Origin: Tannerella forsythia
GTDB lineage: Bacteria; Bacteroidota; Bacteroidia; Bacteroidales; Tannerellaceae
NCBI RefSeq assembly: GCF_001006485.1
Contig: NZ_JUET01000078.1
Location: 35,143-99,142 of the forward strand
DNA: 64,000 bases
Direction: 5' to 3'
The position numbers were made by a program, and so were the translations under genes. Positions 19,542 through 58,545 of the stretch are shown in pieces. Numbering within the stretch: the first letter of the stretch is position 1; each line of letters starts with the position of its first letter. Below the pieces are notes generated by a model. That model was given only the letters and a program-made list of their open reading frames with translations, made no database searches and was not told where the DNA came from.

Positions 19542-19652
19542 ACATAACGCAGTGCATTTTTCTGCCGAAGAATTATGTTGGATAGCATAAAACGCCTTAT
19601 CTTTGCATCGTGTTTTTCATGGTATTAGATTTAAGGTTAACAATGAAGATTG

Positions 19653-19686
19653 TGGTTGTCGTGAGACAACCATTTCTTTTTTATAG
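19653..19686 (+). terminator. Rho-independent terminator downstream of nadK
   Basis: tggttgtc-gtga-gacaacca hairpin followed by tttctttttt. Confidence 0.55.
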
Positions 19687-19773
19687 AAGTTCCTAAATTT
19701 CACCTCCCTTTTCCCTCTATCTAACTAAAACAAGAATTAATTCCGTTTTTGTCATTAACTAATGAAAAAACGC

Positions 19774-19781
19774 TATATTTG
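19774..19781 (+). promoter_or_regulatory. Candidate -7 promoter box (TAnnTTTG) with an upstream TTTG for secDF
   Basis: tatatttg lies 55 bp upstream of the secDF ATG. TTTG at 19748-19751 is about 22 bp upstream (candidate -33 element). Confidence 0.4.
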
Positions 19782-19835
19782 CACCCTAAAAAAAAGAGGA
19801 ATAAGAACAAATAACATATAAATCAAGAAATTCAA

Positions 19836-22800
19836 ATGCAAAACAAAGGATTTGTGAGAGTTTTTGCGATATTGCTTACTCTGGTTTGCCTCTATTATCT
19901 TTCTTTCTCGTTTGTGACGAGAAAATATTATAAAGAGGCGGCAGAGTATGCAAACGGAAGCTCGTCGAAGGAGAGTTTTTATTTAGACTCGTTAGCCAAC
20001 AAAAAAGTGTGGTTTGGCGCTTATACGTTGAAGCAGTGCCGGGAAATGGAAGTGACCTTAGGGCTTGACCTGAAAGGGGGAATGAACGTTGTATTGGAGC
20101 TCAACGTGCCGGATGTAATCCGTTCGTTAGCCAACAACAGTCAGGATGTCAACTTCAACAAGGCATTGGAATCGGCTTATGCCCGTCAGGCAACCAGCCA
20201 GAGAAACTTTGTTGATCTGTTCGCCGAAGAGTATAAGAAGCTGGACCCGGGTGCACATCTGTCAGCCCTTTTCAGCACGTTTGAACTGAAAGAAAAAATT
20301 AATCCGCAAAGCTCTGATGATCAAGTTGTTTCCGTACTCAAAGAAGAGCTGCAAAGCGCCATCGACAACTCCTTTAATGTATTACGTACGCGTATAGACC
20401 GCTTTGGAGTTGTTTCGCCCAATATCCAGCGTCTGGAAACTGCCGGACGTATCTTGGTCGAATTGCCGGGTGTGAAAGAGCCTGCACGTGTGCGTAAACT
20501 CTTGCAGGGAAGTGCCAATCTCGAGTTTTGGGAAACGTATAACCTGACCGAGATCAACCAGCAGCTGATGGCAGCCGATCAAGTGTTGGCACGTGTCCTG
20601 ACGCCCGTATCGGCTGAGGCTGATACGACAGCAGCTTCCGTGCCGACTTCCGAATCGGCGGTACAAACCGACACGATGGCCTCACAAGCCACCGACTCGC
20701 TGATCGCACAGTTGGGAGGTGAGGAGCAACAAACTCCCGAAGCCAACATGTCGTTGGAAGAATACGCCAAACAACACCCGTTGTTTGCTTTGTTGCAACT
20801 GAACGTAGACCCAACCGGACGTTACCTGATTCCGGGACCGGTGGCAGGCTATGCGAGAAAAACAGATATGGAAAAGATTTCCGAATATCTGAATATGCCG
20901 CAAGTGAAAGCCGTGCTCCCGAATAACATTATCTTCCGTTGGGGTGTAAAAGCAATGGATGAGAACGATCAGTTTTATCAGTTGTATGCACTGAAAGTGA
21001 CGAACCGCGACGGCACACCGGCCATGAGTGGCGATGTCGTGACGAATGCGGTGGCCGACTTTGCACAGCAGCAGATCGGACGTTCGCAGTATCAGGTGAG
21101 CATGACGATGAATGCCGAAGGAGCACGTGAATGGGCACGTCTGACGAAAGAAAACATCAAGCGAAGCATCGCAATCGTGCTGGACGGCATGGTTTATTCG
21201 GCTCCGACCGTTCAGACAGAAATTACCGGCGGACAGTCGCAGATTACGGGAGACTTTACGCAGGATGAAGGAAAAGACTTGGCCAACGTATTGAAATCCG
21301 GAAAGATGGCCGCTTCGGTAAATATCGTACAGGAAGATATCGTAGGACCGTCACTCGGTCATGAAGCGATTCAGGCGGGAGTTATCTCATTCGTTCTGGC
21401 TCTGATCATTTTGATGATCTACATGTGTGCCATCTACGGCCTTGTACCGGGTATGATCGCCAACGGCGCATTGGTGCTGAATATTTTCTTTACCATGGGT
21501 ATTCTCGCATCGTTCCAAGCCGTACTGACGCTGCCGGGTATTGCCGGTATGGTGCTCACGTTGGGTATGGCCGTCGATGCAAACGTATTGATCTATGAAC
21601 GTACAAAAGAAGAACTGCGTAACGGTAAACAATTGGCCAAGGCGATTGCCGACGGTTACTCGAACGCTTTCTCGGCAATTTTCGACGCTAACCTGACAAC
21701 GGTCATCACAGGCATCGTATTATTCGTCTTCGGAACAGGTCCCATCCGCGGATTTGCCACGACCTTGATTATCGGCTTGATCGCTTCGTTCTTAACGGCC
21801 GTCTTCCTGACACGTCTCGTATACGAAGCATTACTGGCAAAAGACAAGATCAAGCATCTGACATTCACAACTCCGGTATCGAAAAATATTCTGACTGACC
21901 CGAAAGTAAACTTCCTCGGCAAACGGAAAATCGGATATCTGATCCCGCTAATTATCATTGTTCTCGGTACGGTATCGATGTTTACCGTAGGGTTGAATAA
22001 CGGCATCGACTTTACAGGAGGACGGAATTATGTGATCCGTTTCGATAAGGACGTACGCACGGACGAAATCCGTTCAGCACTGGAGCCGCAGTTGCAGGGT
22101 GGATCGGTAGGGGTAATTACAATCGGCTCCCAGAATCAGGTACGCGTATCTACGAACTATCGTATTGCAGACAATGCGCAGGATGTAGACGATGATATTA
22201 CCGGAAAGCTGTATGCCGGTCTCCAATCCTTCTTGCCGGAGGGTACCACATTCGAACAGTTTACCTCCGACCATATTCAAAGTTCGCAAAAGGTAGGACC
22301 AAGTATGGCCGATGACATCAAAAACAGCGCATTCATGGCTGTGATTTTCGCCATGTTCTGTATGGCTTTGTATATCCTCGTTCGTTTCCGCGACGTCGCT
22401 TTCTCGATCGGCGTATTCGTGTCTGTTGCAGTAACGACTTTGTGCATCATCGCATTCTATACGCTGCTATGGAAGATTATGCCGTTTTCCATGGAGGTCG
22501 ATCAGACATTTATTGCCGCTATCCTGACGGTAATCGGCTACTCGATCAACGATACCGTGGTTGTCTTCGACCGTATCCGCGAGACGATTCAGAACTATCC
22601 GAAACGGGATCGCTATCAGGTAATCAACGACTCCTTGAACTCTACGCTTGCACGTACCTTCAGTACGTCAATCTCCACGTTTATCGTTGTATTTATTATT
22701 TTCCTGTTGGGAGGGTCTACGATTCAAAGCTTTACGTTCGCGATCCTGTTAGGCGTGATCGTCGGCACGTATTCCACGCTGTTTGTGGCAACCCCGATTG

Positions 22801-22934: not shown

Positions 22935-23167
22935 TATCCCCCGATTATTCTCCCTTGTGAATTCATTTCAATGTTATTGGGTGGATGGGAACCCTAATTT
23001 TATCGCCACTCTTATTGCCATTCAAAAAGGGGCTTGGAAACAAAAATGGACTATTCAGAAAGCGCATATACTGACCTCGAAGATGGCTTTTCAGGCTTTC
23101 CAATCATTTATCGTATACTAATAATTAAATACAATGCGTACCCTCGTCCCTTCATTTTAAATAATAC

Positions 23168-23184
23168 CCCCTATTTTTAGGGAT
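23168..23184. repeat. Degenerate direct repeat, copy 1 (ccctatttttagggat...gagaaaaaat)
   Basis: The 15-nt core cctatttttagggat (itself a small CCCTA/TAGGG palindrome) plus roughly 20 nt of flanking similarity recurs about 150 bp downstream. Confidence 0.5.
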
Positions 23185-23317
23185 CGACCGAGAAAAAATT
23201 CCTTTTATATTCACCAAAAATATAAAAATTCCTCACATAAAAAAAAGAATTAAACTAAAAATCTCAACCCTACATAAGAAAAACAAGAAATTCACAAACC
23301 TCGAAAAAGAATAAATA

Positions 23318-23332
23318 CCTATTTTTAGGGAT
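23318..23332. repeat. Degenerate direct repeat, copy 2
   Basis: Identical 15-nt core cctatttttagggat, followed by taacagagacaaaaat (compare cgaccgagaaaaaat in copy 1). Confidence 0.5.
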
Positions 23333-23404
23333 TAACAGAGACAAAAATACTTTCTACCTTTGTGGCCGTTATTATAATATCAAAATTAAAAAAAAACATT
23401 TCTA

Positions 23405-23638
23405 ATGAAAAGAACATTTCTTTATGTCGGATGTATTGCAGGAGCTGTCTTGCTTCTACTGGGTTCCTGTTCCGACAACATGTTCGAAGATGTCAATACG
23501 TCTCCGAAAGGAAAAGCGGAAGCTATAAAGTTGAGAAGTATGGCCAATGAAGACGAGAAAGAAAAATATCTCATTCAATTTGCTGAAGTATTGTCAAAAG
23601 CTACCTATGCAAGGAAAGATGTCCGTGAGTTCCAGTAG
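23405..23638 (+). CDS. Hypothetical small lipoprotein (77 aa)
   Basis: Lipoprotein signal MKRTFLYVGCIAGAVLLLLGSC. It lies in an AT-rich islet and has no recognisable domain. Confidence 0.45.
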   Translation: MKRTFLYVGCIAGAVLLLLGSCSDNMFEDVNTSPKGKAEAIKLRSMANEDEKEKYLIQFAEVLSKATYARKDVREFQ

Positions 23639-23701
23639 CAGTCGTTCATACATATAACACAGGATATGTTAAATTTGCTTTGGCAGTAGAATAATAGAAA
23701 A

Positions 23702-24049
23702 ATGAAGACCAAAAGCCTTTTTATCTTATTAGCCGTTATTGTGAGTGGATTGTTTTTCTCATGCTCCAAAAAAGAGAAGGATTACAAGGTAACCATTAAA
23801 GTATTCAGTGATAACCCTTGTGTCCCGGTCAGATTAGAGGGTTACGAGACTCACTATTCGACCATCATGAGGTTCAGATGGGATAAAGAATTTATTGTAC
23901 CCCCTGAAAGCTATCTCGAGATGAAAGCTGAATGTGTAGAGGACAAAGACAAGAACGACACATTGCTGAGAATCGAATTCTGGGTAGATGGAGAATTACG
24001 CAAACAAAAAGAATGGCACGGCTATGTTCATTTAAAAATGAAATTATAA
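23702..24049 (+). CDS. Hypothetical small lipoprotein (115 aa)
   Basis: Lipoprotein signal MKTKSLFILLAVIVSGLFFSC. It is followed by a terminator hairpin and has no recognisable domain. Confidence 0.5.
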   Translation: MKTKSLFILLAVIVSGLFFSCSKKEKDYKVTIKVFSDNPCVPVRLEGYETHYSTIMRFRWDKEFIVPPESYLEMKAECVEDKDKNDTLLRIEFWVDGELRKQKEWHGYVHLKMKL

Positions 24050-27969: not shown

Positions 27970-28008
27970 AAATTTCTTAAATTAATATACATCTACATTC
28001 TATTTCTC

Positions 28009-29187
28009 TTAATATAAAAATCCGAACAGCCATAAAGGAATCAAGTTCTCTCCTCCTATTTCCATTTTATCCACTGCATAGTACATACCCGGATTAAATT
28101 TTCCTCTCGTATCGGGAACAATCTGAAAATGATATTTCCCATTCACTAAAAAACGAGCATTTTGATTGCTCTCATTCATGTTGTTATCTTTAATCAGTTG
28201 ATTACAAAAGAATGTTTCGTTTACGGCCGGTCCATCGGGTATCTGCTGATTCATCACGTACATCAGATTGGGATTATACATATATGCCCGCACAGGTTTC
28301 TTGGGATATTCCTCACCTGGTGCATAAAGCAGATTAATCATCCGCGCATCTTGCAGATATTTAATATAGTTCATCACCGTTGCCCGTGATGTCTCGATCA
28401 ACTTACTCAACTGGCTTATGTTCGGTGTACAAGGCATATGAAGCGAAAGTAAGTAGAGCAATTTACGTAACTTCGTCAAGTAACGCTGCTCAACCTGTTT
28501 AATGTATAAAACGTCGACTTCAAGCGTCATATTCATCGTTTTGAGCAAGTTTTCCGAATAGTTTCGCTTTTCGAGAAAGAACGGATAGAAACCGTGATGC
28601 AGATAATCGCGAAAATAAGCACGAGGTTTTATCAATGCACATACCTCACGGGCGATAGCCATGTGATTTTTCATCACCTCGTCGAACGAATAGGCTGGGA
28701 AGTCGGTGCCGGCCATCAGATTCAGATATTCGCGAAACGAGAAGCCTCTCAGATAGTATGACGAGACTTTTCCGGCCAAATCGGGATTCTCGTCTTTGAG
28801 ACGCATGACGGACGAACCGGTAAACACGATCCGCAAATCGGTGAAATGATCGTAACAATATCTCAACTCACGAGACCATTCGGGATATTTGAATACCTGA
28901 TCGATAAGCAGTACTTTACCACCCTGTGCACGAAACTCGCCGGCAAAGTCAATCAATGTCCGCTCCGTAAAAAAGAAATGATTCAAATTGATATACAGAC
29001 ATTCTTTATTGTCAGAACCAAAAAACTCACGGGCATACAGCAACAGAAACGTTGTTTTCCCGACTCCGCGCGAGCCTTTGATGCCAATTAACCGTTGGTT
29101 CCAATCAATTTCATCCATCAGCCCACGCCGAACGGTCGAGCCAAGATGTGCCAACAGATATTGATGTGTTCGGTAAAAAGCCTCCAT
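28009..29187 (-). CDS. AAA+ superfamily ATPase with DUF4143 (COG1373-like)
   Basis: Walker A GSRGVGKTT and Walker B LLIDQV, with a C-terminal DUF4143-like region. Confidence 0.7.
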   Translation of the reverse strand: MEAFYRTHQYLLAHLGSTVRRGLMDEIDWNQRLIGIKGSRGVGKTTFLLLYAREFFGSDNKECLYINLNHFFFTERTLIDFAGEFRAQGGKVLLIDQVFKYPEWSRELRYCYDHFTDLRIVFTGSSVMRLKDENPDLAGKVSSYYLRGFSFREYLNLMAGTDFPAYSFDEVMKNHMAIAREVCALIKPRAYFRDYLHHGFYPFFLEKRNYSENLLKTMNMTLEVDVLYIKQVEQRYLTKLRKLLYLLSLHMPCTPNISQLSKLIETSRATVMNYIKYLQDARMINLLYAPGEEYPKKPVRAYMYNPNLMYVMNQQIPDGPAVNETFFCNQLIKDNNMNESNQNARFLVNGKYHFQIVPDTRGKFNPGMYYAVDKMEIGGENLIPLWLFGFLY

Positions 29188-29352
29188 GCCTTGTTAAAAA
29201 TCGAAGGCAAAGATACGAAGATATTTGAAATTGCAATGTCGAGTTGGCAAAAAACTGCAAAAACTGCTATTTGTTTCCGGAAGCTCTCACAAAAAAGGTC
29301 AGAGATCACATCGCATGATCAAGAGAAGAACTGCCTCCTTTACAATTATATA

Positions 29353-29856
29353 TCAAAAAGATAAGTCATTCTTCATGGAAAGACCAAGAAAAATGACCGT
29401 ATCGGTAGCCGCATGATGAGTAAACGTATAGGCCGCTCCGTCATTGATTCGTATCGTATATGTTCCGTGTCTCAACGGTATTTCATATTTCAAGTTATAC
29501 GGGCATAGGCATCGCACACTGTTTTTCGAAACATCTTCTTCCTTCACCCAAAGCTGATCTCCCTTTTGACTGACACGAATCTCCATCTTTGCCGCACAAT
29601 TATAAACTGCGCTATCGTGAGCGATCTGCAGCCTACCGTCTTCAACGGCTTTCAGGCGAAGCGTTTCATGCAGGCTGGAAGAAGCGTTACCCGCTTCTTC
29701 CGATCTGGTATTCGATAAACAACCCGAATTGTATATATTATAGACTTTCAGAGAAGCACCGGCAGCCGTACTTTGCATGTCTTCTTCATTACACCCCCAT
29801 GCCCAAACCATGGTTGCCAATACTGCTATATACAGAAACATTCTTTTCAATTTCAT
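29353..29856 (-). CDS. Hypothetical lipoprotein
   Basis: Signal peptide plus lipobox (VWAWGC). No recognisable domain. Confidence 0.5.
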   Translation of the reverse strand: MKLKRMFLYIAVLATMVWAWGCNEEDMQSTAAGASLKVYNIYNSGCLSNTRSEEAGNASSSLHETLRLKAVEDGRLQIAHDSAVYNCAAKMEIRVSQKGDQLWVKEEDVSKNSVRCLCPYNLKYEIPLRHGTYTIRINDGAAYTFTHHAATDTVIFLGLSMKNDLSF

Positions 29857-29939
29857 TGTACTCCGTTTTTTTATTCATTCTATATAATGACGCAAAACAG
29901 AGGCCAAATGTTGCATGTTTCTGTTATTTTTAAACTTTT

Positions 29940-30959
29940 TTATTCAATCACCTTCACCCAGCCGTAATCGTCCGGTTCGTCGCCGTACTGAATAGCACGC
30001 AACTTGTGATACAAACGGGTACAAACAGGTCCTACTTTTCCGTCTTTGGCAATGACGTATTGCTTGTCCTCATCCAGGTCATCGATCTGAGAAATCGGAG
30101 CGATAACGGCTGCCGTTCCACATTCGGCCGCCTCGTCGAATGTCGCGATTTCTTCAAAAGGTACCGGACGACGTTCTACCGTCATGCCCATTTGCTCGGC
30201 AAGCTGCATCAGACTCTTGTTTGTGATTGACGGGAGAATAGATTCGGACGCCGGCGTGATGTATGTATTGCCACGTATGCCGAAGAAGTTGGCCGGGCCG
30301 CATTCGTCAATATACTTTTTCTCTTTCGGATCAAGGTAAAGTACGGCCGCATAGCCGCCTTGCCGTGCCTTTTCGCCGGCGCGAAGGCTGGCTGCATAAT
30401 TTCCGCCGACCTTCACCATTCCCGTACCATGAGGCGCTGCACGGTCGTATCCGCGCATGACACATACCTTCGACGGTTGAAATCCATTCTTAAAGTAAGG
30501 ACCTACGGGAGTGACAAAGATAAGGAACAAATATTCGACAGCCGGTTTAACACCAACCTGCGCACCGGTTCCGATCAGCAGCGGACGAAGATAGAGTGAC
30601 GAACCGCTTTCGTGGGGCGGTATAAAACGTTCATTCAGCAATACGACCTTACGGACAGCCTCTTCAAATTTCTCGACAGGCAATTCCGGCATCAGGATGG
30701 CTCGGCTCGACGATTGCAGTCGCTTGGCGTTTTCATCCATCCGAAACACACGAATTTTACCGTCTTTGCCACGAAAAGCTTTCAGCCCTTCGAATGCTTC
30801 CTGACCATAGTGCAGACACGTAGCTGCCATGTGGATATTAATCATTTCGGACGAAGAAATTTCAATCTCGCCCCATTTGCCATCGCGATAGCAGCATCTT
30901 ACGTTATAATCCGTCTTCATGTATCCGAACGGAATTTCCGACCAATTGATATTTTCCAT
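29940..30959 (-). CDS. ilvE: Branched-chain amino acid aminotransferase
   Basis: 339 aa, PLP fold-type IV. Motifs are HYGQEAFEGLKAF, the catalytic-Lys context and ECGTAAVI. Confidence 0.9.
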   Translation of the reverse strand: MENINWSEIPFGYMKTDYNVRCCYRDGKWGEIEISSSEMINIHMAATCLHYGQEAFEGLKAFRGKDGKIRVFRMDENAKRLQSSSRAILMPELPVEKFEEAVRKVVLLNERFIPPHESGSSLYLRPLLIGTGAQVGVKPAVEYLFLIFVTPVGPYFKNGFQPSKVCVMRGYDRAAPHGTGMVKVGGNYAASLRAGEKARQGGYAAVLYLDPKEKKYIDECGPANFFGIRGNTYITPASESILPSITNKSLMQLAEQMGMTVERRPVPFEEIATFDEAAECGTAAVIAPISQIDDLDEDKQYVIAKDGKVGPVCTRLYHKLRAIQYGDEPDDYGWVKVIE

Positions 30960-33163: not shown

Positions 33164-33745
33164 CTATATTTTCTCTACGAGTACCGTGTGCCCGTTCAGG
33201 ACGGCGGTCACGCGGATGGGAGCTTCGTTAGGCAGGCGCTCGCCGTCGGTCATGGCGTCATATTCGCGGATGGCACCGCGGACGCTGACTTGCACTTTAC
33301 CTTCGCCCGTGCGTGCGGCCGGGATGGTCAGGTAGACCGCCCCTTTGCAGCCGACAAGGGCTTCCGGCTCAATGGTGCCCGACTGCTGCATGCCGCTCAT
33401 CCATTTAAACAGGTACATCACGGCGGCTACGAGCAGCACACCCACCACCACGCCGCCGACGAGTATCAGCGAAGTGTTTTCGGTGGACGCGCGCAGGGCG
33501 ATGGCCGTCCAGCTGAACCCCAGCAGGAAATTGATCAGATTACGAAACGTGAAAAGTTGGAAGGGGGTCGCCTCACCCGTGCCGTCGGCAGACATATCGC
33601 CGTCGAAGTCGCCGTCAAAATTCGTTTCGGAGTCCATCCCCACAAAGGTCATGACACTTTGAATAATAAAGACCACTGAGGCAAAAATAGCGATGCCCCA
33701 AAGAGTTTGCATAAATGGATCGAGTGATCCCCACCATGTTTCCAT
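33164..33745 (-). CDS. NfeD-like membrane protein (YqiJ family), flotillin partner
   Basis: TM helices, then a C-terminal OB-fold (GCKGAVYLTIPAARTGEGKVQVSVRGAIREYDAMT). It lies upstream of the flotillin operon. Confidence 0.7.
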   Translation of the reverse strand: METWWGSLDPFMQTLWGIAIFASVVFIIQSVMTFVGMDSETNFDGDFDGDMSADGTGEATPFQLFTFRNLINFLLGFSWTAIALRASTENTSLILVGGVVVGVLLVAAVMYLFKWMSGMQQSGTIEPEALVGCKGAVYLTIPAARTGEGKVQVSVRGAIREYDAMTDGERLPNEAPIRVTAVLNGHTVLVEKI

Positions 33746-39020: not shown

Positions 39021-39878
39021 ATGAATACGCATAAGGTAGCCGGTATTCGCAGGGAAAACCGTTTTTCACCGAATCATGTAGGAAACGATGCCGCCATTTT
39101 TTCATTGACGGCAGAGCATCTGCACCGTATGGGATGCACGGTGAACGAATACATCGAATCGGACCTGTTAGTTCGGGACATCGATGCCAATATCGTTTTT
39201 AACATGGCACGTGAACGACAGATGGTACGTAAATTGCAACGTATGGAAGACGAAGGATGCAAGGTCATCAATTCGGGCTACGGTATCGAGAATTGCACCC
39301 GTGAGAAGATGACGCGTCTTTTGCTATCTGCCGGAATAGCCCATCCGAAGAGCCTGATACTTAAAACGGACGACGATCCGACGGAGGCGCTCGAGGAGGC
39401 CGGCCTGCATCATTGCTGGATCAAACGCGGAGATTTCCATGCCATCCATCGTGAAGACGTGACCTATGTTCGTCATCGCGAAGAGGCCAAAGGTATTTTT
39501 CATGAGTTTGCCGTGCGAGGAATTGAAACCGCAGTGATAAATGAACATCTGGTCGGCGATCTGGTCAAATTTTACGGGGTGTACGGAACGGACTTCTTCT
39601 ATTGGTTTTATCCGTTCGAGATGCATCACGGAAAGTTCGGGCTTGAACAAATCAACGGTGCAGCCAAGGGATTTTCATTCGATCTGAATTATTTACGAAA
39701 AATGTGCGATCAGGCAGCCCAGGTGTTGAACGTCCATATTTATGGTGGCGACTGCATTGTATCGGAAGACGGCACGGTACGACTGATCGACTTCAACGAC
39801 TGGCCGAGTTTTGCACCTTGTCGTGATGAAGCGGCACCCCATATTGCCGAATGTATTTACCGTTTCATGAAACAATGA
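39021..39878 (+). CDS. ATP-grasp fold enzyme (RimK/ITPK-like)
   Basis: Pattern KVINSGYGIENCTREKMTRLLLSAGIAHPKS...WIKRGDFHA...AVINEHLVGDLVKFYGV...IYGGDCIVSEDGTVRLIDFNDWPS, consistent with the ATP-grasp central and C domains. Confidence 0.55.
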   Translation: MNTHKVAGIRRENRFSPNHVGNDAAIFSLTAEHLHRMGCTVNEYIESDLLVRDIDANIVFNMARERQMVRKLQRMEDEGCKVINSGYGIENCTREKMTRLLLSAGIAHPKSLILKTDDDPTEALEEAGLHHCWIKRGDFHAIHREDVTYVRHREEAKGIFHEFAVRGIETAVINEHLVGDLVKFYGVYGTDFFYWFYPFEMHHGKFGLEQINGAAKGFSFDLNYLRKMCDQAAQVLNVHIYGGDCIVSEDGTVRLIDFNDWPSFAPCRDEAAPHIAECIYRFMKQ

Positions 39879-40798: not shown

Positions 40799-41526
40799 TC
40801 AACATAAAAACTATTCAAGGGATCGTGTTCGACTACGGCGGTACGATCGACAGTAACGGATTGCATTGGGCGGAAGTGATCTGGCAGGCTTATCAGGCGG
40901 AGGCTGTTCCCGTCACGAAAGACGTTTTCCGGCAGGCTTACGTGTATGCCGAGCGGACGATGGGGCAACTTCCTTTGGTAAAACCGGAGCATACGTTTGC
41001 CGATATGATGCGTATTAAGACCGATTTGCAAATCGAGTGGCTTCGTGAGAATCGGTATTTGTCGGACATGGAAGCCTCACGCGAATTGAAACGAAGCCTG
41101 GCCGGGCGATGCTATACATTCGCTGCGCGGTCGACCGCTGCGGCGCGCCCTGTTATCGAGGTGCTGGCCGACAGTTATCCGCTGGTCATGGTTTCCAATT
41201 TTTACGGAAACCTTCGGACGGTATTGAAAGATTTCCGTCTCGATGCGTATTTCCCGCTCCTTATCGAGTCAGCGACGGTGGGCGTCCGCAAACCCGATCC
41301 TCAAATCTTCCGGTTGGGAATCAGCGCCCTGAACATACCGGCTGCTCATATCGCTGTGATCGGAGACTCGTACGATAAGGATATCGTTCCTGCCGCCGCT
41401 GTGGGTTGCCGTACGGTCTGGCTCAAAAACATCGGTTGGAAAGAATATGCCGGTAACGAGACGGCTGACGCTGTAATTTCGGACTTTTCGGAGCTGAAAA
41501 CGGTTTTTAATTTGTCATCATCTTAA
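40795..41526 (+). CDS. HAD-superfamily hydrolase (subfamily IA-like)
   Basis: Motif I variant VFDYGGTID, motif II MVSN, motif III GVRKPDPQIF, motif IV VIGDSYDKD. Its start overlaps the upstream stop (ATGA). Confidence 0.75.
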   Translation: MINIKTIQGIVFDYGGTIDSNGLHWAEVIWQAYQAEAVPVTKDVFRQAYVYAERTMGQLPLVKPEHTFADMMRIKTDLQIEWLRENRYLSDMEASRELKRSLAGRCYTFAARSTAAARPVIEVLADSYPLVMVSNFYGNLRTVLKDFRLDAYFPLLIESATVGVRKPDPQIFRLGISALNIPAAHIAVIGDSYDKDIVPAAAVGCRTVWLKNIGWKEYAGNETADAVISDFSELKTVFNLSSS

Positions 41527-41550
41527 AAAACATATACCTTTGTCCACCGG

Positions 41551-42006
41551 ATGAAAAGTCCTCGGATGAAGCATAAACGACATATCATGCAATGGGTCGT
41601 ATGGATAAGCAGTGTATTCTTCCTGTTTTCGGCGACGGCACCACATCATCATCACGATGGTGGGAAAGTTTGTTTTATGTCTTTTTGGGGAGACGGAGCA
41701 AAACATGCCTGCTGTCATACGTGCGGCGAAACCTCTCCGAACAGCCATCTTCATCACCATCCTTTACAGACATGCGATGATTGTGGGGCGACCGTGTCCG
41801 TCACCCTGACACAGGATCATGATAGCCATGCGGCTGTGACGCCTGTTCTCATTCCTTTCTTCGTATTACTGAATTATCTCTATCCGGCCGAATTGGAACA
41901 AGCCGGTCTGTGTTTCTCCCGAAAACATCTCTCCTTTTATATCGAAGCGCTTCGCGACACGTGGATTACACGTGCTTCGGGACTGCGCGCCCCGCCTCTT
42001 TTTTAA
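41551..42006 (+). CDS. Hypothetical His/Cys-rich small membrane protein (possible metal-binding accessory protein)
   Basis: One N-terminal TM helix (WVVWISSVFFLFSATA), then the HHHHDGG, CCHTCGE and HLHHHP motifs, and DDCG. It sits directly upstream of czcBAC. The start is ambiguous (41551 or 41587). Confidence 0.45.
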   Translation: MKSPRMKHKRHIMQWVVWISSVFFLFSATAPHHHHDGGKVCFMSFWGDGAKHACCHTCGETSPNSHLHHHPLQTCDDCGATVSVTLTQDHDSHAAVTPVLIPFFVLLNYLYPAELEQAGLCFSRKHLSFYIEALRDTWITRASGLRAPPLF

Positions 42007-42081
42007 TGAACCGAAAATCATTTCAGGCTGATTGCAGACGTACTATATTCAGCGATTGTTCATTCATTAAAAAAGTCAATT

Positions 42082-43320
42082 ATGAAACATCGATCATTTA
42101 TTTTATTGTGGGCAGTTTGCGCCTGCATACTTGCCGGGTGTGGCGGCTCATCCACACAAAAAGACGAACATCAACACGCTCATGATGAACATTCACATCA
42201 TGATCATAAACATGAGCATGACCATAAACACGACCATGACCATGAAGGGGAGGAGCATGATCACGACTATAAAGAAGACACCCATGAAGCCATAGATAAC
42301 GAGATTATTTTTACAGCCGAACAGGCCAAGGCCGTAGGTCTGGAAGTCAGCACCGCAGAGCCCGGTCTGTTTTGTCAGGTAATCAAAGCCGGCGGACAAA
42401 TCCTGTCGGCACAAGGTGACGAGGTGACGATAGCCGCGACATCGAACGGTATCCTTTCTTTTTCCGGTTCTGCAGTCGAGGGAGTGGCGGTACGTGCCGG
42501 CGAAGCGATCGCATCGATCTCGGCCAAAGATATTGCCAATGGTGATCCGGTGGCGCAGGCCCGGATTACGTATGAAACCGCCGAGAAAGAATTCCGACGC
42601 GCCGAAGAGTTAGTGAAGGATCAAATCATCTCGACCCAGGAATTCGAGCAGGTTCGCCTCCGTTACGAAACGGCGAAGACCGCCTATCGGGCGTTTGCCG
42701 GCAAAGCGGGAGTGCACGGCGTAAGGCTTACGACACCCATCGCAGGATACCTCAAAAACCGGTTTGTCAATCAGGGAGAGTTTGTGGCAGTCGGCCAGCC
42801 TGTCGCCACCGTTTCACAGAACCGGCGGTTACAATTGCGTGCCGAGGTTCCTGAAAAATATTTCAGAGACTTACAGCACATCGGGAGTGCGAATTTCAAG
42901 GTATCCTACAGCGACCGGATATACAAACTGAGCGAACTGAAAGGGCGGTTGCTGTCGTTCGGGAAGTCGGCAGGACAAGCCTCGTTCTATATTCCCGTCA
43001 CTTTCGAGTTCGACAATATCGGCGATATCATGCCCGGCGCTTACGCCGAAGTGTATCTGCTTTCCACTCCGCGTCCCGATGTGATAACCTTGCCGATAAA
43101 GGCTGTAACGGAGGAGCAAGGGGTTCATTTTGTGTATGTTCAACTCGACGAAGAAGGTTACGTAAAAAGAGAAGTTACCTTAGGAGCTGACGACGGTGAG
43201 CGCGTGCAGATTCTTTCCGGGATACATGTGGGAGATCGCGTCGTGACGCAGGGTGTTTACCAGCTGAAGCTGGCGGCCAATGCAAGCGTGATTCCGGAAG
43301 GTCACAGTCACAGTCATTAA
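42082..43320 (+). CDS. Efflux RND periplasmic adaptor subunit (CzcB/CusB-like) with a His-rich N-terminal extension
   Basis: Lipoprotein signal (ILAGC), then His-rich HQHAHDEHSHHDHKHEHDHKHDHDHEGEEHDHDY, an MFP barrel-sandwich/beta-barrel core and the C-terminal HSHSH. Confidence 0.8.
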   Translation: MKHRSFILLWAVCACILAGCGGSSTQKDEHQHAHDEHSHHDHKHEHDHKHDHDHEGEEHDHDYKEDTHEAIDNEIIFTAEQAKAVGLEVSTAEPGLFCQVIKAGGQILSAQGDEVTIAATSNGILSFSGSAVEGVAVRAGEAIASISAKDIANGDPVAQARITYETAEKEFRRAEELVKDQIISTQEFEQVRLRYETAKTAYRAFAGKAGVHGVRLTTPIAGYLKNRFVNQGEFVAVGQPVATVSQNRRLQLRAEVPEKYFRDLQHIGSANFKVSYSDRIYKLSELKGRLLSFGKSAGQASFYIPVTFEFDNIGDIMPGAYAEVYLLSTPRPDVITLPIKAVTEEQGVHFVYVQLDEEGYVKREVTLGADDGERVQILSGIHVGDRVVTQGVYQLKLAANASVIPEGHSHSH

Positions 43321-43333
43321 AAACCGGACGGAT

Positions 43334-46300
43334 ATGCTGAATAATATTATACGATTTTCATTGAATAATCGGCTGATCGTGCTTGCCGCAGCTGTATTAT
43401 TGCTCTTTGCCGGTACGTATACGGCCATGAACATGGACGTGGATGTCTTCCCCGACCTGAATGCTCCGACCGTAGTCGTGATGACCGAGGCAAAAGGGAT
43501 GGCTCCCGAGGAAGTAGAGCGGTTGGTCACTTTTCCGGTAGAGACGGCCGTCAACGGAGCGACGGATGTGCGTCGCGTACGTTCATCGTCGACAACCGGC
43601 TTCTCGGTCGTATGGGTCGAGTTTAACTGGGGGACGGATATTTACCGTGCGCGCCAGATCGTATCGGAAAAGCTGGCTATGATCGGCGAATCTTTACCGC
43701 CGAACGCAGGAAGACCGACGCTGGGGCCGCAATCGTCTATTCTCGGCGAGATGATGATTATCGGCCTGACGGCCGATACGACCTCGATGGAGGAACTGCG
43801 AACGATCGCCGACTGGACCATTCGTCCGCGTCTGTTGTCTACGGGCGGAGTAGCGCAAGTAGCCGTATTGGGAGGCGATATCAGGGAATATCAGGTGTTG
43901 CTGAATCCTGAAAAGATGAAGCATTACGGGATCGGTCTGGACGAGGTGATGAAAGTAGTTCGCGACATGAATCAAAACGCGTCGGGCGGGGTATTATACG
44001 AATACGGAAACGAGTACATCATCCATGGCGTGATCTCCACCAACGACGTCGATGCCCTTTCGAAAGCCGTATTGAAACGCGTGGGCGAGGTACCGCTCTT
44101 GCTGGGCGATGTGGCCGATGTACGTATCGGCGCGAAGATGCCGAAACTCGGCGTAGCATCGCACCGCGCCAAGCCGGCCGTATTGCTGACGGTCACGAAA
44201 CAGCCGCATACGAGCACGCTCGATCTGACGCGGAAGCTCGACGCTTCCATCGCCGAATTGCAAAAAACGATGCCCCGTGATGTGCAGGTGGCAACCGATA
44301 TCTTCCGACAGTCACGATTTATCGAAAGTTCGATCGGCAACATTCGGCGATCGCTGATCGAAGGGGCTGTTTTCGTCGTGATCATCCTGTTTATCTTCCT
44401 GATGAATGCACGAACCACCCTGATCTCGCTCGTCACCATTCCTTTGTCGATCCTCGTTGCCATCGTCGTGTTACGATTGATGGGGCTGACGATTAACACG
44501 ATGAGTATCGGAGGGATGGCCATTGCGATCGGCTCACTCGTTGACGATGCGATCGTCGACGTCGAAAACGTCTACAAACGTCTGCGTGAGAACCGGCAGA
44601 AGCCCGAGGCCGAGCGGCGCGGAGTGATTGCCGTCGTGTTCGATGCCTCGCAGGAGGTGCGGATGCCAATCCTGAACTCAACCTTTATTATCGTCGTCAG
44701 CTTCGTGCCGTTGTTCTTCCTTTCGGGTATGGAGGGACGGATGCTGGCGCCGTTGGGCGTGGCTTTTATTGTGGCGCTGTTTGCCTCTACTCTCGTAGCG
44801 TTGACGCTGACCCCCGTGTTATGCAGTTTTCTGCTCACGGCAGACCGCCAGACAAAGAAAAACAAAGAGCCGTTCGTGGTGCGTCATCTCAAGGCGGCTT
44901 ACGAACGCGCTTTAGACCGGACGCTGACCCATCGGAAGGCTTCGCTCGGCATTACGGGTGGGATCGCACTCGTGGCGCTCGTCGCCTTTTTCATGTTGGG
45001 AAACAGTTTTCTGCCGTCGTTCAACGAAGGTTCGTTTACGATCAACGTAAGTACACTGCCGGGCATCTCGCTCGAAGAGTCGGACAAGGTTGGTCGCCGG
45101 GCGGAAGAGTTACTGCTTTCGATTCCGGAGATACGGACGGTGGCACGTAAGACCGGACGCGCCGAGTTAGACGAGCATGCGTTGGGGGTCAATGTCTCTG
45201 AAATCGAAGCGCCGTTCGAGCTTTCCGGACGGTCGAAAGAAGAGGTCGTCGAGGAAGTGCGGGAGAAGCTGAAAACGCTTTCGGGAGTAAATATTGAGAT
45301 CGGACAACCCATCTCGCACCGTATCGACGCGATGTTATCAGGCACACGAGCCAATATTGCCATCAAGCTGTTCGGTACGGACCTGAACCGTATGTTCGCG
45401 CTCGGCAACCGGATTAAGACGAGTATCGCCGATATCGAGGGGATTGCCGACCTGAACGTAGAGCAGCAGATCGAACGTCCTCAGATCAAAATCGAGCCGA
45501 AACGCGAGATGCTCGCCAAATACGGCATCCCCCCTTCCGAGTTCGGAGAGTATGTATCGGTTATGCTCGGTGGCGAGGTCGTTTCGCAGGTGTATGAAGG
45601 CAATCGCTCCTTCGATCTGACCGTAAGGGTCAATGACGAGAGCCGGAGCGGCATCGACCGGATCGGTGATCTGATCATCGATGCCGACGGGCGGAAAATA
45701 CCGCTGAGCTACGTGGCCGACATTGTTTCGTCCGGCGGGCCGAATACGATCAGCCGCGAGAACGTCAGTCGCAAGATCGTCGTTTCGGCCAATGTGTCGG
45801 GCGGGGACCTGCGGGGTATCGTCCACCGGATACGCGAACGGATCGATGAGCAGATCGTGCTTCCCGAAGGGTATCACATCGAATACGGCGGACAGTTCGA
45901 GAGCGAGCAGGCTGCATCGCGCACGCTGCTCGTCGCCTCTATCCTGTCTATTTTCGTTATCTTCCTGCTGCTTTACAACCAGTTTAGGAGCATGAAGCAG
46001 TCGGCCGTCGTACTGTTGAATCTTCCGTTGGCACTCATCGGCGGCATCTTTGCCATCTTCTTTGCCGACCGAATCATCAGCATCCCCGCCATCATCGGAT
46101 TCATTTCGCTGTTCGGCATTGCCACACGCAACGGCATGCTTCTGATCGATCGATACAACGATCTGAAACGCAGTGGGCTGTCATTGATTGAGTGTGTAAG
46201 GCAAGGTTCATCAGACCGGCTTAACCCCATTCTGATGACGGCGCTTACCTCGGCGCTGGCGCTCGTTCCGCTGGCCTTGGGAGGCGATCTGCCGGGTAAC

Positions 46301-46417
46301 GAAATTCAGAGCCCGATGGCTGTCGTGATTCTGGGCGGATTGTTGACCTCTACGCTGTTAAACGGCTTTATCATCCCGATTATGTATCTTTTAATCCATA
46401 AAAAGCAAGACGTATGA
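43334..46417 (+). CDS. CusA/CzcA-family heavy-metal efflux RND transporter
   Basis: 1027 aa with the 12-TM RND architecture. The N-terminal MLNNIIRFSLNNRLIVLAAAV is typical of CzcA/CusA. Confidence 0.9.
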   Translation: MLNNIIRFSLNNRLIVLAAAVLLLFAGTYTAMNMDVDVFPDLNAPTVVVMTEAKGMAPEEVERLVTFPVETAVNGATDVRRVRSSSTTGFSVVWVEFNWGTDIYRARQIVSEKLAMIGESLPPNAGRPTLGPQSSILGEMMIIGLTADTTSMEELRTIADWTIRPRLLSTGGVAQVAVLGGDIREYQVLLNPEKMKHYGIGLDEVMKVVRDMNQNASGGVLYEYGNEYIIHGVISTNDVDALSKAVLKRVGEVPLLLGDVADVRIGAKMPKLGVASHRAKPAVLLTVTKQPHTSTLDLTRKLDASIAELQKTMPRDVQVATDIFRQSRFIESSIGNIRRSLIEGAVFVVIILFIFLMNARTTLISLVTIPLSILVAIVVLRLMGLTINTMSIGGMAIAIGSLVDDAIVDVENVYKRLRENRQKPEAERRGVIAVVFDASQEVRMPILNSTFIIVVSFVPLFFLSGMEGRMLAPLGVAFIVALFASTLVALTLTPVLCSFLLTADRQTKKNKEPFVVRHLKAAYERALDRTLTHRKASLGITGGIALVALVAFFMLGNSFLPSFNEGSFTINVSTLPGISLEESDKVGRRAEELLLSIPEIRTVARKTGRAELDEHALGVNVSEIEAPFELSGRSKEEVVEEVREKLKTLSGVNIEIGQPISHRIDAMLSGTRANIAIKLFGTDLNRMFALGNRIKTSIADIEGIADLNVEQQIERPQIKIEPKREMLAKYGIPPSEFGEYVSVMLGGEVVSQVYEGNRSFDLTVRVNDESRSGIDRIGDLIIDADGRKIPLSYVADIVSSGGPNTISRENVSRKIVVSANVSGGDLRGIVHRIRERIDEQIVLPEGYHIEYGGQFESEQAASRTLLVASILSIFVIFLLLYNQFRSMKQSAVVLLNLPLALIGGIFAIFFADRIISIPAIIGFISLFGIATRNGMLLIDRYNDLKRSGLSLIECVRQGSSDRLNPILMTALTSALALVPLALGGDLPGNEIQSPMAVVILGGLLTSTLLNGFIIPIMYLLIHKKQDV

Positions 46418-47595
46418 AAAAATATATGATAGCAGGACTTGCCGTGCTGCTGACCATCGTGGCGCAAGCGCAGACGACGATGGACGAGGTATTGCGTCAA
46501 GTGGAAACGAATAACCGCGAGTTGCAGGCCGCCCGCCAGTATTACGAGTTGCAGTTGCTCGAATCGAAAAGTGAGAATAACCTGCCCGATCCATCGGTGA
46601 GTTATTCGCATCAATACGGCAATCGTGCGGAGATGGGCGTACAGGGTGAGCTGGTCGCGTCGCAGTCGTTCGAGTTCCCCACGGTTTACGGGCAACGCAG
46701 CAAACTGACGACCGTTCGCCAACAACTCTTCGCCTCGCAATACACCGGTGAGCGTCGTCAGGTATTGCTCAATGCCCAAGAGGTCTGCCTCGATTTAGTG
46801 TGGCTTAACCGGCGTCGACAGCTCCTTCGCGAACGGCGACGCGACGCCGAGCGGCTGGCGGAGCTGTATGACGAGCGTTTGAAGAAAGGCAATGCCAATA
46901 TACTGGAGACGAATAAAATCAAGCTCGAGCTCTTAAACGTAAAGACGGAAGAACGGCTGAACGAGACGGAACGCGAAGGCAAGTTGCGCGAATTGGCCAC
47001 GTTGAACGGCGGACACCCCGTCGCATTCACCGATACGGTTTACCCCTCGCCTGCCGAACCGTCCTCGTGGGACGCGTTACGTGACGAGGCGCTGGCCGCC
47101 GACGCCACATTACAGACGTTGCAATACCGGCAGGCCGAAGCGCAGCGGCAGATCGGCGTAAGCCGCGCTCAGGGGCTGCCCGGACTGGAGCTGGGCTATC
47201 GGCTGAACACGGCCACCGGTGGAGATCGATACAACGGCTTCGTCGTGGGAATGAGCATCCCGCTCTTTTCAAACCGCCATCAGGTGAAGAAGGCGCACCG
47301 TCAAAGTCATTATGTAGAGTTGCAACGTGAGAGCGCTGCGGTACAGGCCAAGAACCGCCTGATGCAGCTCTATCACCGGTTGCAGGTACTCCGCGCTTCG
47401 ATGGACGAATTTGATACCGTACTCAAAAATCAGGACAACCTGAACCTGCTGAATAAAGCGTTGCAAGCCGGACAAATCTCCATGATCGAGTATTTCGTCA
47501 GCATCGGCACGCTATATCAGAGCACCGACTATCATCTGCAACTGCAAAGCGAATACCACAAAGTGCTGGCCGCGATTTACAGCTACAAACTTTGA
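46414..47595 (+). CDS. TolC-family outer membrane factor (CzcC-like)
   Basis: Signal peptide, two OEP repeats with coiled coils, and a start that overlaps the czcA stop. Confidence 0.8.
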   Translation: MKKYMIAGLAVLLTIVAQAQTTMDEVLRQVETNNRELQAARQYYELQLLESKSENNLPDPSVSYSHQYGNRAEMGVQGELVASQSFEFPTVYGQRSKLTTVRQQLFASQYTGERRQVLLNAQEVCLDLVWLNRRRQLLRERRRDAERLAELYDERLKKGNANILETNKIKLELLNVKTEERLNETEREGKLRELATLNGGHPVAFTDTVYPSPAEPSSWDALRDEALAADATLQTLQYRQAEAQRQIGVSRAQGLPGLELGYRLNTATGGDRYNGFVVGMSIPLFSNRHQVKKAHRQSHYVELQRESAAVQAKNRLMQLYHRLQVLRASMDEFDTVLKNQDNLNLLNKALQAGQISMIEYFVSIGTLYQSTDYHLQLQSEYHKVLAAIYSYKL

Positions 47596-57648: not shown

Positions 57649-58545
57649 TTATTTGTCTTTCTTTCCTTTTTTCCACAACTGCCAGCTATTGATCATATTT
57701 TGCCACAGGATATACCCCGAAGGTGCGATCGCCGTCAGCGGATGCAGATACGTCTGTGCCATCCAGACAGCAAGGATCGTATTCTTCTGTCCGAGCCCCT
57801 GCCCCGACGACACCGGATCGCCATAATAACGGCCGATACGACGACCGAGTATAAATTGCAACACACATAAAACGAGCGACACACCCAGCAAACCGTATTC
57901 CGTTTGATAGTCGACATTATCCTGATTCAGCATAAACTGAACGGTGATACCCGTCACTACAGTCAGGGCAACAGCCCAGAGATAGAAGGTCATACGCGGC
58001 ATACTCAGCAAAAGACGGTGTACCCGAGGCGTCCATTTCCGAACGGCCAACGCCACAAACAGGGGGAGAATAAGCAGCGGGAGGACTTTCCGGCAGATAA
58101 ACCATACCGACTGCATAAACGTCATCTCATCGCCATGTACGCCGGTCAAGGTGAAATAGACGGGGGCAGCGACGGCCACAGCCATGTTGCAGAACAGCAG
58201 ATAAGCCGTCAGGAAGCCGACATTGCCGCCGAGCATACCTGTAATCACGGCCGCCGCTGTCGCCGTAGGTACCAGCATGCAGAGCATCGCTCCCTGCGCC
58301 ACGACAGCGTCGAACGGACGCAGTATCCAGTAAACGGCCGCACTCCCGACCAACTGAATCATCAGCAGCCAGAGGTGTGCCGGATGGAAGCGAATATCCT
58401 TCAGCGAGATTTTACAGAACGTGAGCAGCAGCATCGTAAAAATCAGGTAAGGAGTCAAAAAAGAAAGGCGGCTGACCCATTGATGAGCCAGCGCGCCTGT
58501 AATCATTGCGATCGGAAGCATCCAATCTTTTACGAATTTCAACAC
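57649..58545 (-). CDS. Putative BASS/AEC-fold membrane transporter
   Basis: About 10 TM helices. GQKNTILAV resembles the BASS-family GxQN motif. Confidence 0.45.
   Translation of the reverse strand: MLKFVKDWMLPIAMITGALAHQWVSRLSFLTPYLIFTMLLLTFCKISLKDIRFHPAHLWLLMIQLVGSAAVYWILRPFDAVVAQGAMLCMLVPTATAAAVITGMLGGNVGFLTAYLLFCNMAVAVAAPVYFTLTGVHGDEMTFMQSVWFICRKVLPLLILPLFVALAVRKWTPRVHRLLLSMPRMTFYLWAVALTVVTGITVQFMLNQDNVDYQTEYGLLGVSLVLCVLQFILGRRIGRYYGDPVSSGQGLGQKNTILAVWMAQTYLHPLTAIAPSGYILWQNMINSWQLWKKGKKDK

Follow-up and report, generated by a model that had tools for sequence, protein, structure and literature searches.

In the cutFOG operon of Rhodobacter capsulatus, the exported nascent chain of CutF binds copper, which makes the ribosome stall for longer at a Pro-rich motif near the C-terminus and opens a stem-loop over cutO (Ozturk et al. 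2023, PMC9973294). The same work surveyed 5,334 CutF-like proteins, many of them from Bacteroidota and many encoded 5' of genes for OEP (PF02321), ACR_tran (PF00873) and CusB/CzcB-type HlyD_D23 (PF16576) proteins. CruR (Bp2923) of Bordetella pertussis, a DUF2946 protein, requires an RAPP motif for regulation, and copper relieves its arrest with the result that Rho-dependent termination switches the operon off (Roy et al. 2022, PMC9426467); its action is independent of the signal sequence (PMC9973294). The mechanism of RAPP arrest has been described for the arrest peptides ApdA and ApdP (PMC10951233). Fujiwara et al. (PMC12992588) report that RAPP and RGPP arrest translation robustly and in an EF-P-resistant manner, and that both are depleted from bacterial proteomes and over-represented close to the C-terminal end of small secreted or membrane proteins encoded 5' of other genes, including those of metal homeostasis. 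SecM of E. coli stalls at the motif 150-FxxxxWIxxxxGIRAGP-166 with Gly165 in the P-site and Pro166-tRNA in the A-site (PMC10951299), and in SecM, VemP and MifM alike a hairpin that masks the next gene serves as the read-out (PMC9973294). Here we describe a 64,000 nucleotide (nt) stretch of Tannerella forsythia DNA (assembly GCF_001006485.1, contig NZ_JUET01000078.1, positions 35,143 to 99,142 of the forward strand; hereafter the window), in which a small open reading frame (ORF) of the DUF6769 family directly precedes the genes of a resistance-nodulation-division (RND) metal efflux pump, and we propose that its product is most likely a regulatory arrest peptide and metal sensor.

The small ORF, given in full in the ORF list as 151 amino acids (aa; MKSPRMKHKRHIMQWVVWISSVFFLFSATAPHHHHDGGKVCFMSFWGDGAKHACCHTCGETSPNSHLHHHPLQTCDDCGATVSVTLTQDHDSHAAVTPVLIPFFVLLNYLYPAELEQAGLCFSRKHLSFYIEALRDTWITRASGLRAPPLF), matches the Pfam family DUF6769 (PF20558) with 52 bits against a cut-off of 27, covering profile positions 2-129 of 130. 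Its homologues bear a precomputed PF20558 label, and NCBIfam holds no model matching it. A profile search of 1.84 billion representative proteins returned 314 clusters at E<=1e-3 and 54 at E<=1e-10, nearly all of 120-160 aa, and DUF6769 is a Bacteroidota family. A literature search on DUF6769 returned a single unrelated paper and none that characterises it. Conservation counts given below come from an alignment of 136 members, and figures on geometry and composition from 219 members. An initial annotation of the window, made from the letters alone, had singled out this ORF for its His/Cys clusters, and these are all present in the ORF list, with HHHHDGG at residues 32-38, CCHTCGE at 54-60, HLHHHP at 66-71 and DDCG at 76-79.

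The most strongly conserved part of DUF6769 is the C-terminal block of about 20 residues ending in RAPP, and its invariant GLRAPP had gone unmentioned in that annotation. The consensus reads Y-x-E-S-L-H-x2-W-I-x4-G-L-R-A-P-P, with a tail of 2-6 residues up to the stop codon; in the window protein R146-A147-P148-P149 stands two residues before the stop. Out of 136 members, Y130 is kept in 108, E132 in 111, L134 in 109, G144 in 124 and L145 in 120, while the motif itself reaches 134 for R146, 125 for A147, 134 for P148 and 135 for P149. Further conserved positions are an aromatic residue at 138, I/L/V at 139 and A142. A block of this size would match the length of chain that occupies the upper exit tunnel at arrest. 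The string W138-I139-x4-G144-L145-R146-A147-P148-P149 shares its register with W155-I156-x4-G161-I162-R163-A164-G165-P166 of SecM (PMC10951299), and the residues predicted for the P-site and A-site at the stall are Pro148 and Pro149.

Other features of the published RAPP class are also found here. The protein is smaller than 300 aa, the motif is C-terminal, a hydrophobic helix lies at the N-terminus, and the distance from the stop codon to the ATG of the downstream adaptor gene is 75 nt (51-145 nt in homologues). A six-frame scan of the window gave three occurrences of R[AG]PP/RAGP, and only the one in the small ORF falls within a real ORF. The supplement of PMC12992588 already lists the Parabacteroides goldsteinii homologue of the small ORF (our locus L004) as an RAPP upstream ORF before an RND adaptor. 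According to the same supplement, these Bacteroidales genomes also encode further small His/Cys proteins, unrelated to this one, that have RAPP at the C-terminus and lie 5' of TonB-dependent receptors, and arrest-type upstream ORFs seem to be used repeatedly in Bacteroidota. No further one was found elsewhere in the window in the six-frame scan.

The second line of evidence is an RNA stem that joins the predicted arrest site to the start of the adaptor gene. The minimum free energy (MFE) structure pairs nucleotides 41998-42010 (CUUUUUUAAUGAA) with 42075-42063 (UUCAUUAAAAAAG), and a 3-bp extension pairs 42013-42015 with 42061-42059; the arm at 41998-42010 takes in codons 150-151, the stop codon and the four nucleotides behind it. 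We calculated the expected number of pairs between segment A, the 18 nt from the A-site Pro codon on, and segment B, from -25 to +9 around the adaptor start. The window gave 12.75 such pairs compared with 0.85 +/- 1.8 in 100 dinucleotide shuffles, none of which reached the observed value. Blocking nt 41980-42010, which a stalled ribosome would cover, raised the unpaired probability of the leader at 42062-42081 from 0.30 to 0.73. As the stem arms are unalignable between homologue groups, nucleotide covariation could not be counted, and recurrence at the level of architecture together with shuffle controls was used in its place. A closing stem recurs in about 10 of 14 groups with arm sequences that are unrelated between groups apart from three Parabacteroides-like ones (P. 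goldsteinii/segnis, L016/L037 and L020/L021), which share theirs. Stems are further borne by Tannerella, the gut-metagenome groups L005, L029/L067, L038/L044 and L040, the Tannerellaceae metagenome-assembled genome (MAG) L007 and the distant locus L014. Across the stem-bearing groups A-B pairing ranged from 8.5 to 15.8 compared with about 1 +/- 2-3 when shuffled, a level reached by 0-4 of 100 shuffles.

Other RNA-based explanations for the junction were tried and set aside. An Rfam scan of 41300-42300 found no riboswitch or other known RNA, on which ground a NiCo/czcD-type riboswitch was rejected, and the intergenic region holds no intrinsic terminator on the + strand. Attenuation through His codons, as in the his operon, was rejected because HHHH lies about 115 codons before the stop and is a protein-level invariant beside the transmembrane (TM) helix.

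The N-terminal part of the protein is laid out in a way that would suit a sensor read during its own synthesis. The initial annotation had described one TM helix; the helix at residues ~12-30 (TM1) stands, with a median Kyte-Doolittle value of 2.3 for the family 18-mer, but a second hydrophobic segment at residues 96-113 had been missed. The anchor is likely to remain uncleaved, since an invariant Pro at +1 disfavours signal peptidase. At its outer end the P of PHHHH is kept in 135 of 136 members, the four His in 129-134 (96-99%) and Cys41 in 127 (93%), and both PHHHH and Cys41 are invariant in sub-alignments A3 and A5. The loop that follows behaves differently, as its composition is kept across the family and most of its single positions are not. 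His and Cys make up 28% of it in the window protein and 22% in the family median, and a semi-conserved C/H cluster at residues 71-79 is 42-71% conserved. The expectation that the His/Cys positions are conserved among homologues was thus borne out for PHHHH, Cys41 and the C/H cluster at about residues 73-79, but CCHTCGE and HLHHHP are retained in composition rather than in position. The best 13-mer of the second segment scores 2.46 in the window protein (family median 1.55), and the end of the segment lies a median of 35 residues before the last Pro, with an interquartile range of 32-39; from PHHHH to the last Pro the distance is 99-119 residues throughout. About 35 residues before the arrest point the second segment would be just leaving the ribosome tunnel, with the His/Cys loop already exposed, and such a geometry could yield a pulling force of the kind known for monitoring substrates.

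The same features bear on the best-surviving alternative, which the initial annotation had favoured in the form of a periplasmic metal-capture relay feeding CzcA. Here the product would be a stable, membrane-anchored periplasmic metallochaperone or accessory subunit, comparable to CusF, CzcI or AcrZ, that takes up metal through its His/Cys clusters and hands it to the adaptor and pump, with RAPP serving as a protein-protein contact motif. CusF and AcrZ are known small accessory proteins of RND pumps. The conservation of PHHHH, C41 and the C/H cluster, the ligand-rich loop and the strict synteny with the pump would all fit, and the conserved His-rich ends of the adaptor could receive the metal. 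AlphaFold2 (AF2) prediction from a 100-sequence alignment, however, found a confident helix only at the anchor, with no folded domain and no strands, a predicted local distance difference test score (pLDDT) of ~50 for the loop at 31-99 and a predicted template modelling score (pTM) of 0.33. A Pfam search at E<=1 matched the protein neither to CusF nor to any other chaperone family, and most ligand positions of the loop are not conserved. The best-conserved element is instead an arrest motif 2-6 residues before the stop, and a chaperone would have no use for a conserved RNA stem between that motif and the adaptor start. A relay from the small protein is unneeded to explain the data, and we regard it as unlikely. 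The conservation of RAPP together with the stem over the adaptor start argues for a nascent-chain sensor acting in cis rather than a chaperone, and the role of sensor, which the initial annotation had offered as its other option, fits the evidence.

On the grounds of family membership, synteny, motif conservation, the recurrent RNA stem and the lack of a folded domain we consider it probable, though far from assured, that the small ORF encodes a cis-acting, metal-responsive ribosome-arrest peptide of the CutF/CruR type. The signal anchor would direct the translating ribosome to the Sec/YidC machinery, and the PHHHH-Cys site and the His/Cys/Asp/Glu loop would be threaded through to the periplasmic side before synthesis of the C-terminus is finished. 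With R146-A147-P148 in the P-site and Pro149-tRNA in the A-site peptide-bond formation would be inhibited, and the Y-x-E-S-L-H..W-I..A-x-G-L segment in the upper exit tunnel would tune the arrest. Initiation in Bacteroidota relies on unstructured A-rich leaders and not on Shine-Dalgarno pairing. As long as the mRNA is free, a stretch of 13-16 nt that begins right behind the RAPP codons and takes in the stop codon would pair with such a leader and hide the initiation region of the adaptor gene, whereas a ribosome held at RAPP would cover the 5' arm and free the leader, allowing translation of the adaptor and with it of the closely spaced or overlapping genes for the pump and outer-membrane factor. 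Without excess metal, translocation or insertion would pull the chain free quickly, termination would follow two codons on and the stem would re-form. Excess divalent metal, most likely Zn and possibly Co, Cd or Ni, would bind the exposed His/Cys ligands and weaken or delay the pull, and the longer arrest would induce the pump. Stalling, its prolongation by metal, the identity of the metal and the membrane topology are predictions of this scheme, and its direction, in which metal prolongs arrest, is deduced from what an efflux pump would need. A cis-acting arrest sensor would also account for the lack of any regulator near the operon.

Several observations weigh against this proposal. The closing stem is marginal in L011 and L015 and absent or not significant in L008 (Bacteroidaceae-type), in L010, L012 and L013 (Paraprevotella-type) and in L017, where a competing fold wins over it; wider pairing windows still gave no closing stem in L008, L010 and L017. 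The whole 161-nt region folds no better than its shuffles (z = -1.1), so that only the specific long-range A-B pairing is exceptional and not the overall stability, and the U-rich and A-rich stem arms of the window are of low complexity. Of the two relatives that have been studied, CutF stalls for longer with metal and CruR is relieved by it, so that the effect differs in sign, and the mechanism is transferred from these proteins to a family with no detectable DUF2946 homology. No experimental work on a DUF6769 protein, whether on stalling, on a metal response or on regulation, was found in the literature, and a stable mature protein may have a second function.

The loci without a stem lead to the next alternative, a logic like that of CruR in which default arrest at RAPP shields the transcript from Rho, metal alters the time of arrest, and the output is transcriptional read-through. 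GLRAPP is kept without a closing stem in L008 (7447-7593) and in L010, L012 and L013, where the intergenic region is 51 nt; in the Paraprevotella-type proteins the YIESLH..WI stretch of the C-terminal block is missing as well. Arrest might be read out in another way at the L008- and L010-type loci, Rho being one candidate, for which the untranslated intergenic stretches of 51-145 nt could provide loading sites, and CruR works in this manner with the same RAPP motif (PMC9426467). In CruR, however, metal relieves arrest and the operon goes off, the reverse of what an efflux pump would need if the coupling is not inverted; the leader-masking stem is significant in most groups, and the + strand has no intrinsic terminator. 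As a general account of the family we judge this improbable, while a Rho-based read-out may be a serious variant above all for the stem-less subgroups. A third alternative, a SecM- or MifM-like arrest peptide that reports on the capacity for secretion or membrane insertion instead of on metal, with His and Cys serving another purpose or none, would agree with the SecM-like register and with the classical design of a monitoring substrate from anchor, arrest motif and hairpin (PMC7897499, PMC10987492), but is highly improbable given that the downstream genes encode a metal efflux pump and not Sec/YidC components and that PHHHH, the Cys and the His/Cys/Asp/Glu-rich loop are conserved throughout the 219 members.

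The proposal takes the small ORF to be the leading gene of the pump operon. Its real start is probably M6 (ATG 41566, giving 146 aa), since most homologues begin there and since the promoter box falls at 41535-41542. A TAnnTTTG box, a Bacteroidetes promoter consensus reportedly originating with Bayley et al. 2000, lies within 100 nt 5' of the small ORF in 30 of 32 distinct homologous loci compared with a background of 0.058 per 100 nt, and a promoter placed directly 5' of the small ORF would make it the first gene of the operon. Two database homologues, P0004 and P0005, are frame hybrids that begin in an alternative-frame ORF (MGRMDKQCILPVF..., corresponding to window 41592-41780 in the +1 frame) and then return to the DUF6769 frame; these are probably metagenome assembly indels rather than biology.

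The prediction that the small ORF would be conserved upstream of czc-like loci held in all contexts examined. The order DUF6769, CzcB-like adaptor, ACR_tran pump and, where visible, OEP was found in Parabacteroides goldsteinii, P. segnis, a Tannerellaceae MAG, a Bacteroidaceae-like gut contig, Paraprevotella xylaniphila and several distant metagenomic contigs, and adaptor and pump lie directly 3' of the small gene in all 32 distinct junctions recovered from metagenomes, a scan in which a narrower alignment was used and the new loci are biased towards Parabacteroides-like sequences. No transcription factor adjoins the DUF6769 gene in any context examined. The remark that no regulator is visible in the window holds for the 25 ORFs scanned against Pfam, a part of its ORF set that took in the operon, its flanks to ~34 kb and ~52 kb and ten farther ORFs. 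A search of the literature on Bacteroides zinc/czc regulation gave nothing relevant, and a paper on a Mg-efflux RND system of B. thetaiotaomicron concerns another operon. The features of the locus are collected in Table 1.

Table 1 Features of the DUF6769 locus of T. forsythia (positions counted from the first letter of the window)
Feature	Coordinates	Strand	Basis or remarks
Bacteroidetes-type promoter (putative)	41512..41542	+	-33 TTTG 41512-41515, 19-nt spacer, -7 TAccTTTG 41535-41542; deduced from sequence
DUF6769-family small ORF	41551..42006	+	151 aa from ATG 41551; PF20558 match, homologue alignment
Signal anchor / TM helix 1 (residues ~12-30)	41584..41640	+	Lys/Arg/His-rich N-terminus before it; AF2 helix 4-29, pLDDT ~90
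P31-H32-H33-H34-H35 and Cys41, outer end of TM1	41641..41673	+	Family alignment
Disordered His/Cys/Asp/Glu-rich loop (residues 42-95)	41674..41835	+	Composition; AF2 pLDDT 43-60
Second, marginally hydrophobic segment (residues 96-113)	41836..41889	+	Kyte-Doolittle
Arrest module Y130..P149 YIEALRDTWITRASGLRAPP (predicted)	41938..41997	+	RAPP codons 41986-41997
Closing stem, 5' arm (CUUUUUUAAUGAA..GAA)	41998..42015	+	Codons 150-151, stop 42004-42006, next nucleotides; MFE
Closing stem, 3' arm (UUC..UUCAUUAAAAAAG)	42059..42075	+	In A-rich leader, ends 6 nt before adaptor ATG
RND periplasmic adaptor, lipoprotein	42082..43320	+	412 aa; TIGR01730 155 bits; lipobox ILAGC
Heavy-metal efflux RND pump, CusA/CzcA family	43334..46417	+	1027 aa; TIGR00914 790 bits, cut-off 701
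Outer-membrane factor, OEP/TolC-like	46414..47595	+	393 aa; PF02321 99 bits; start overlaps pump stop codon

The matches to the TIGR01730 adaptor, TIGR00914 pump and OEP models agree with the initial description of a CzcCBA-type pump operon, and details of the proteins give some indication of the metal. The His tract at the mature N-terminus of the adaptor and its HSHSH end (43306-43320) were likewise found as described, but the tract is nearer to 42 residues than to the 35 that had been given; the 52 residues after the lipobox Cys comprise 16 His and 18 Asp/Glu. All DUF6769-linked adaptors (L001-L054) carry a His/Asp/Glu tract after the lipobox Cys and a C-terminal HxHxH, with ends that include HSHSH, HTHNH, HSHQH, HSHEH, HNHSH and HSGHVH. 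This two-ended His signature is conserved for the DUF6769-linked adaptor clade, and both ends may well bind metal. The nearest solved adaptor of a metal pump is ZneB (3lnn), the third match after an uncharacterised putative efflux transporter (4l8j) and MexJ (20yy).

The pump scores much the same against ZneA (493 bits) as against CusA (478 bits), and this equal distance does not settle its substrate class. At the positions of what we take to be the three-methionine site of CusA (M573/M623/M672; Long et al. 2010) the pump has N, V and A, and five linked orthologues that are 56-73% identical are also non-Met there. The Cus-type Cu(I)/Ag(I) pump was rejected on account of the missing Met triad. 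TM4 of the pump (around residues 395-415) reads AIGSLVDDAIVDVEN and includes two Asp without a CusA counterpart, kept in the five orthologues. Because of the lack of a Met triad, the TM4 carboxylates and the His/Asp/Glu tract and HxHxH of the adaptor, the pump is probably one for divalent cations, with Zn, Co, Cd or Ni favoured over Cu(I)/Ag(I).

A number of further observations were made on the operons and their surroundings. The pump gene of L014 (8077-12354) is fused to an OEP-like C-terminal part and encodes 1425 aa. The adaptor of L015 (6562-8733) looks split, and a 23S_rRNA_IVP-family gene lies between adaptor and pump. A TetR gene found 7 kb upstream in L008 is part of a separate ATP-binding cassette (ABC) operon. 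Patches of low guanine-plus-cytosine content at 19001-20000 (0.40), 23001-24000 (0.355) and 28001-30000 (0.42), compared with ~0.50 elsewhere in the window, may be acquired DNA, and one of them adjoins an AAA_14/DUF4143 ATPase gene at 28009-29187. The ORFs at 39021-39878, 29353-29856, 33164-33745 and 57649-58545 had no Pfam match at E<=1e-4.

The class of arrest peptides and its mechanism are already published, and homologues of the small ORF are listed in published catalogues of RAPP upstream ORFs compiled in silico (PMC12992588), which limits the gain. Neither PMC9973294 nor PMC12992588 discusses or tests DUF6769, and the main text of the latter never mentions efflux. What appears to be new here, on the reading of sequence, is the assignment of the window ORF to this class, together with its SecM-like register, the geometry common to the family, a closing stem that recurs over a leader without Shine-Dalgarno sequence, the placement of the promoter and the non-Cus character of the pump. 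If the proposal is correct, DUF6769 might, as we suggest tentatively, be the first case of nascent-membrane-protein arrest controlling an RND pump and the first arrest-peptide switch shown in Bacteroidota, combining a divalent-metal sensor made of an uncleaved anchor and a PHHHH-Cys site at the membrane surface, a second segment as force generator, a SecM-like tunnel module independent of DUF2946 and a hairpin over a Shine-Dalgarno-less A-rich leader. It would show how a common Bacteroidales efflux operon, present in Tannerella, Parabacteroides, Paraprevotella and Bacteroidaceae of the gut and mouth, answers metal without a nearby transcription factor, the arrest switch standing in for the regulators that control czc and cus operons elsewhere, which are of the two-component, MerR or ArsR type. 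Nascent-chain metal sensing would be widened from copper and Proteobacteria to probable divalent metals, RND pumps and a non-Shine-Dalgarno phylum. DUF6769, so far uncharacterised, gains a concrete testable function, with RAPP and the closing stem as two elements that are easily mutated, and Bacteroides genetics could possibly gain from the system a small switch inducible by metal.

Compared with known systems, the small protein resembles CusF in being encoded inside a heavy-metal efflux RND (HME-RND) operon. CusF binds the transported metal and is a folded soluble beta-barrel, whereas DUF6769 has no Pfam CusF match or predicted fold and has an arrest motif. CzcI of Cupriavidus metallidurans, encoded 5' of czcCBA and thought to be a metal-sensing regulator, is likewise a small exported His/Cys-containing protein directly 5' of an HME-RND operon, but it lacks a C-terminal Pro motif (PMC9973294) and the gene order is czcI-C-B-A as opposed to small ORF, B, A, C. 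SecM, ApdA and ApdP differ in that they monitor Sec/YidC activity, are without metal ligands and are non-homologous to DUF6769 outside the motif. SecM shares with DUF6769 the register W-I-x4-G-(I/L)-R-A-(G/P)-P, although its F150 is without a counterpart. The arrest site of DUF6769 lies 2-6 residues before the stop, and that of SecM, with its length of 170 aa, 4 residues before it.

The closest likenesses are to the CutF/CruR family DUF2946 (PF11162), although no homology to it was detected, as the small protein gave no Pfam match at E<=1 where a control DUF2946 protein scored 52.6 bits, and hhalign of the DUF6769 profile with that control gave a probability of 5%. CruR is similar in being the first gene of a metal-homeostasis operon with conserved Cys ligands and a C-terminal RAPP, and differs in its TonB-dependent importer target, its 162-nt intergenic region and its sequence family. 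CutF shares N-terminal Sec-type targeting, an exported metal-ligand motif, a C-terminal Pro-Pro stall motif a few residues before the stop and a stem-loop that masks the downstream initiation region, and in both metal is proposed to prolong stalling and switch the next gene on. Both the conserved ligand motif, here PHHHH and C41 as a putative metal site, and the masking stem-loop are present in the window, while the stem-loop is missing in the L008- and L010-type loci. The two differ in their ligands, CxxxC in CutF and PHHHH with Cys/His in DUF6769, and DUF6769 has a likely uncleaved anchor, a second hydrophobic segment and a long tunnel segment ending in an exact RAPP. The target of CutF is a multicopper oxidase and that of DUF6769 a tripartite, probably divalent-metal pump, and where CutF masks a Shine-Dalgarno sequence the stem of DUF6769 would mask an A-rich leader.

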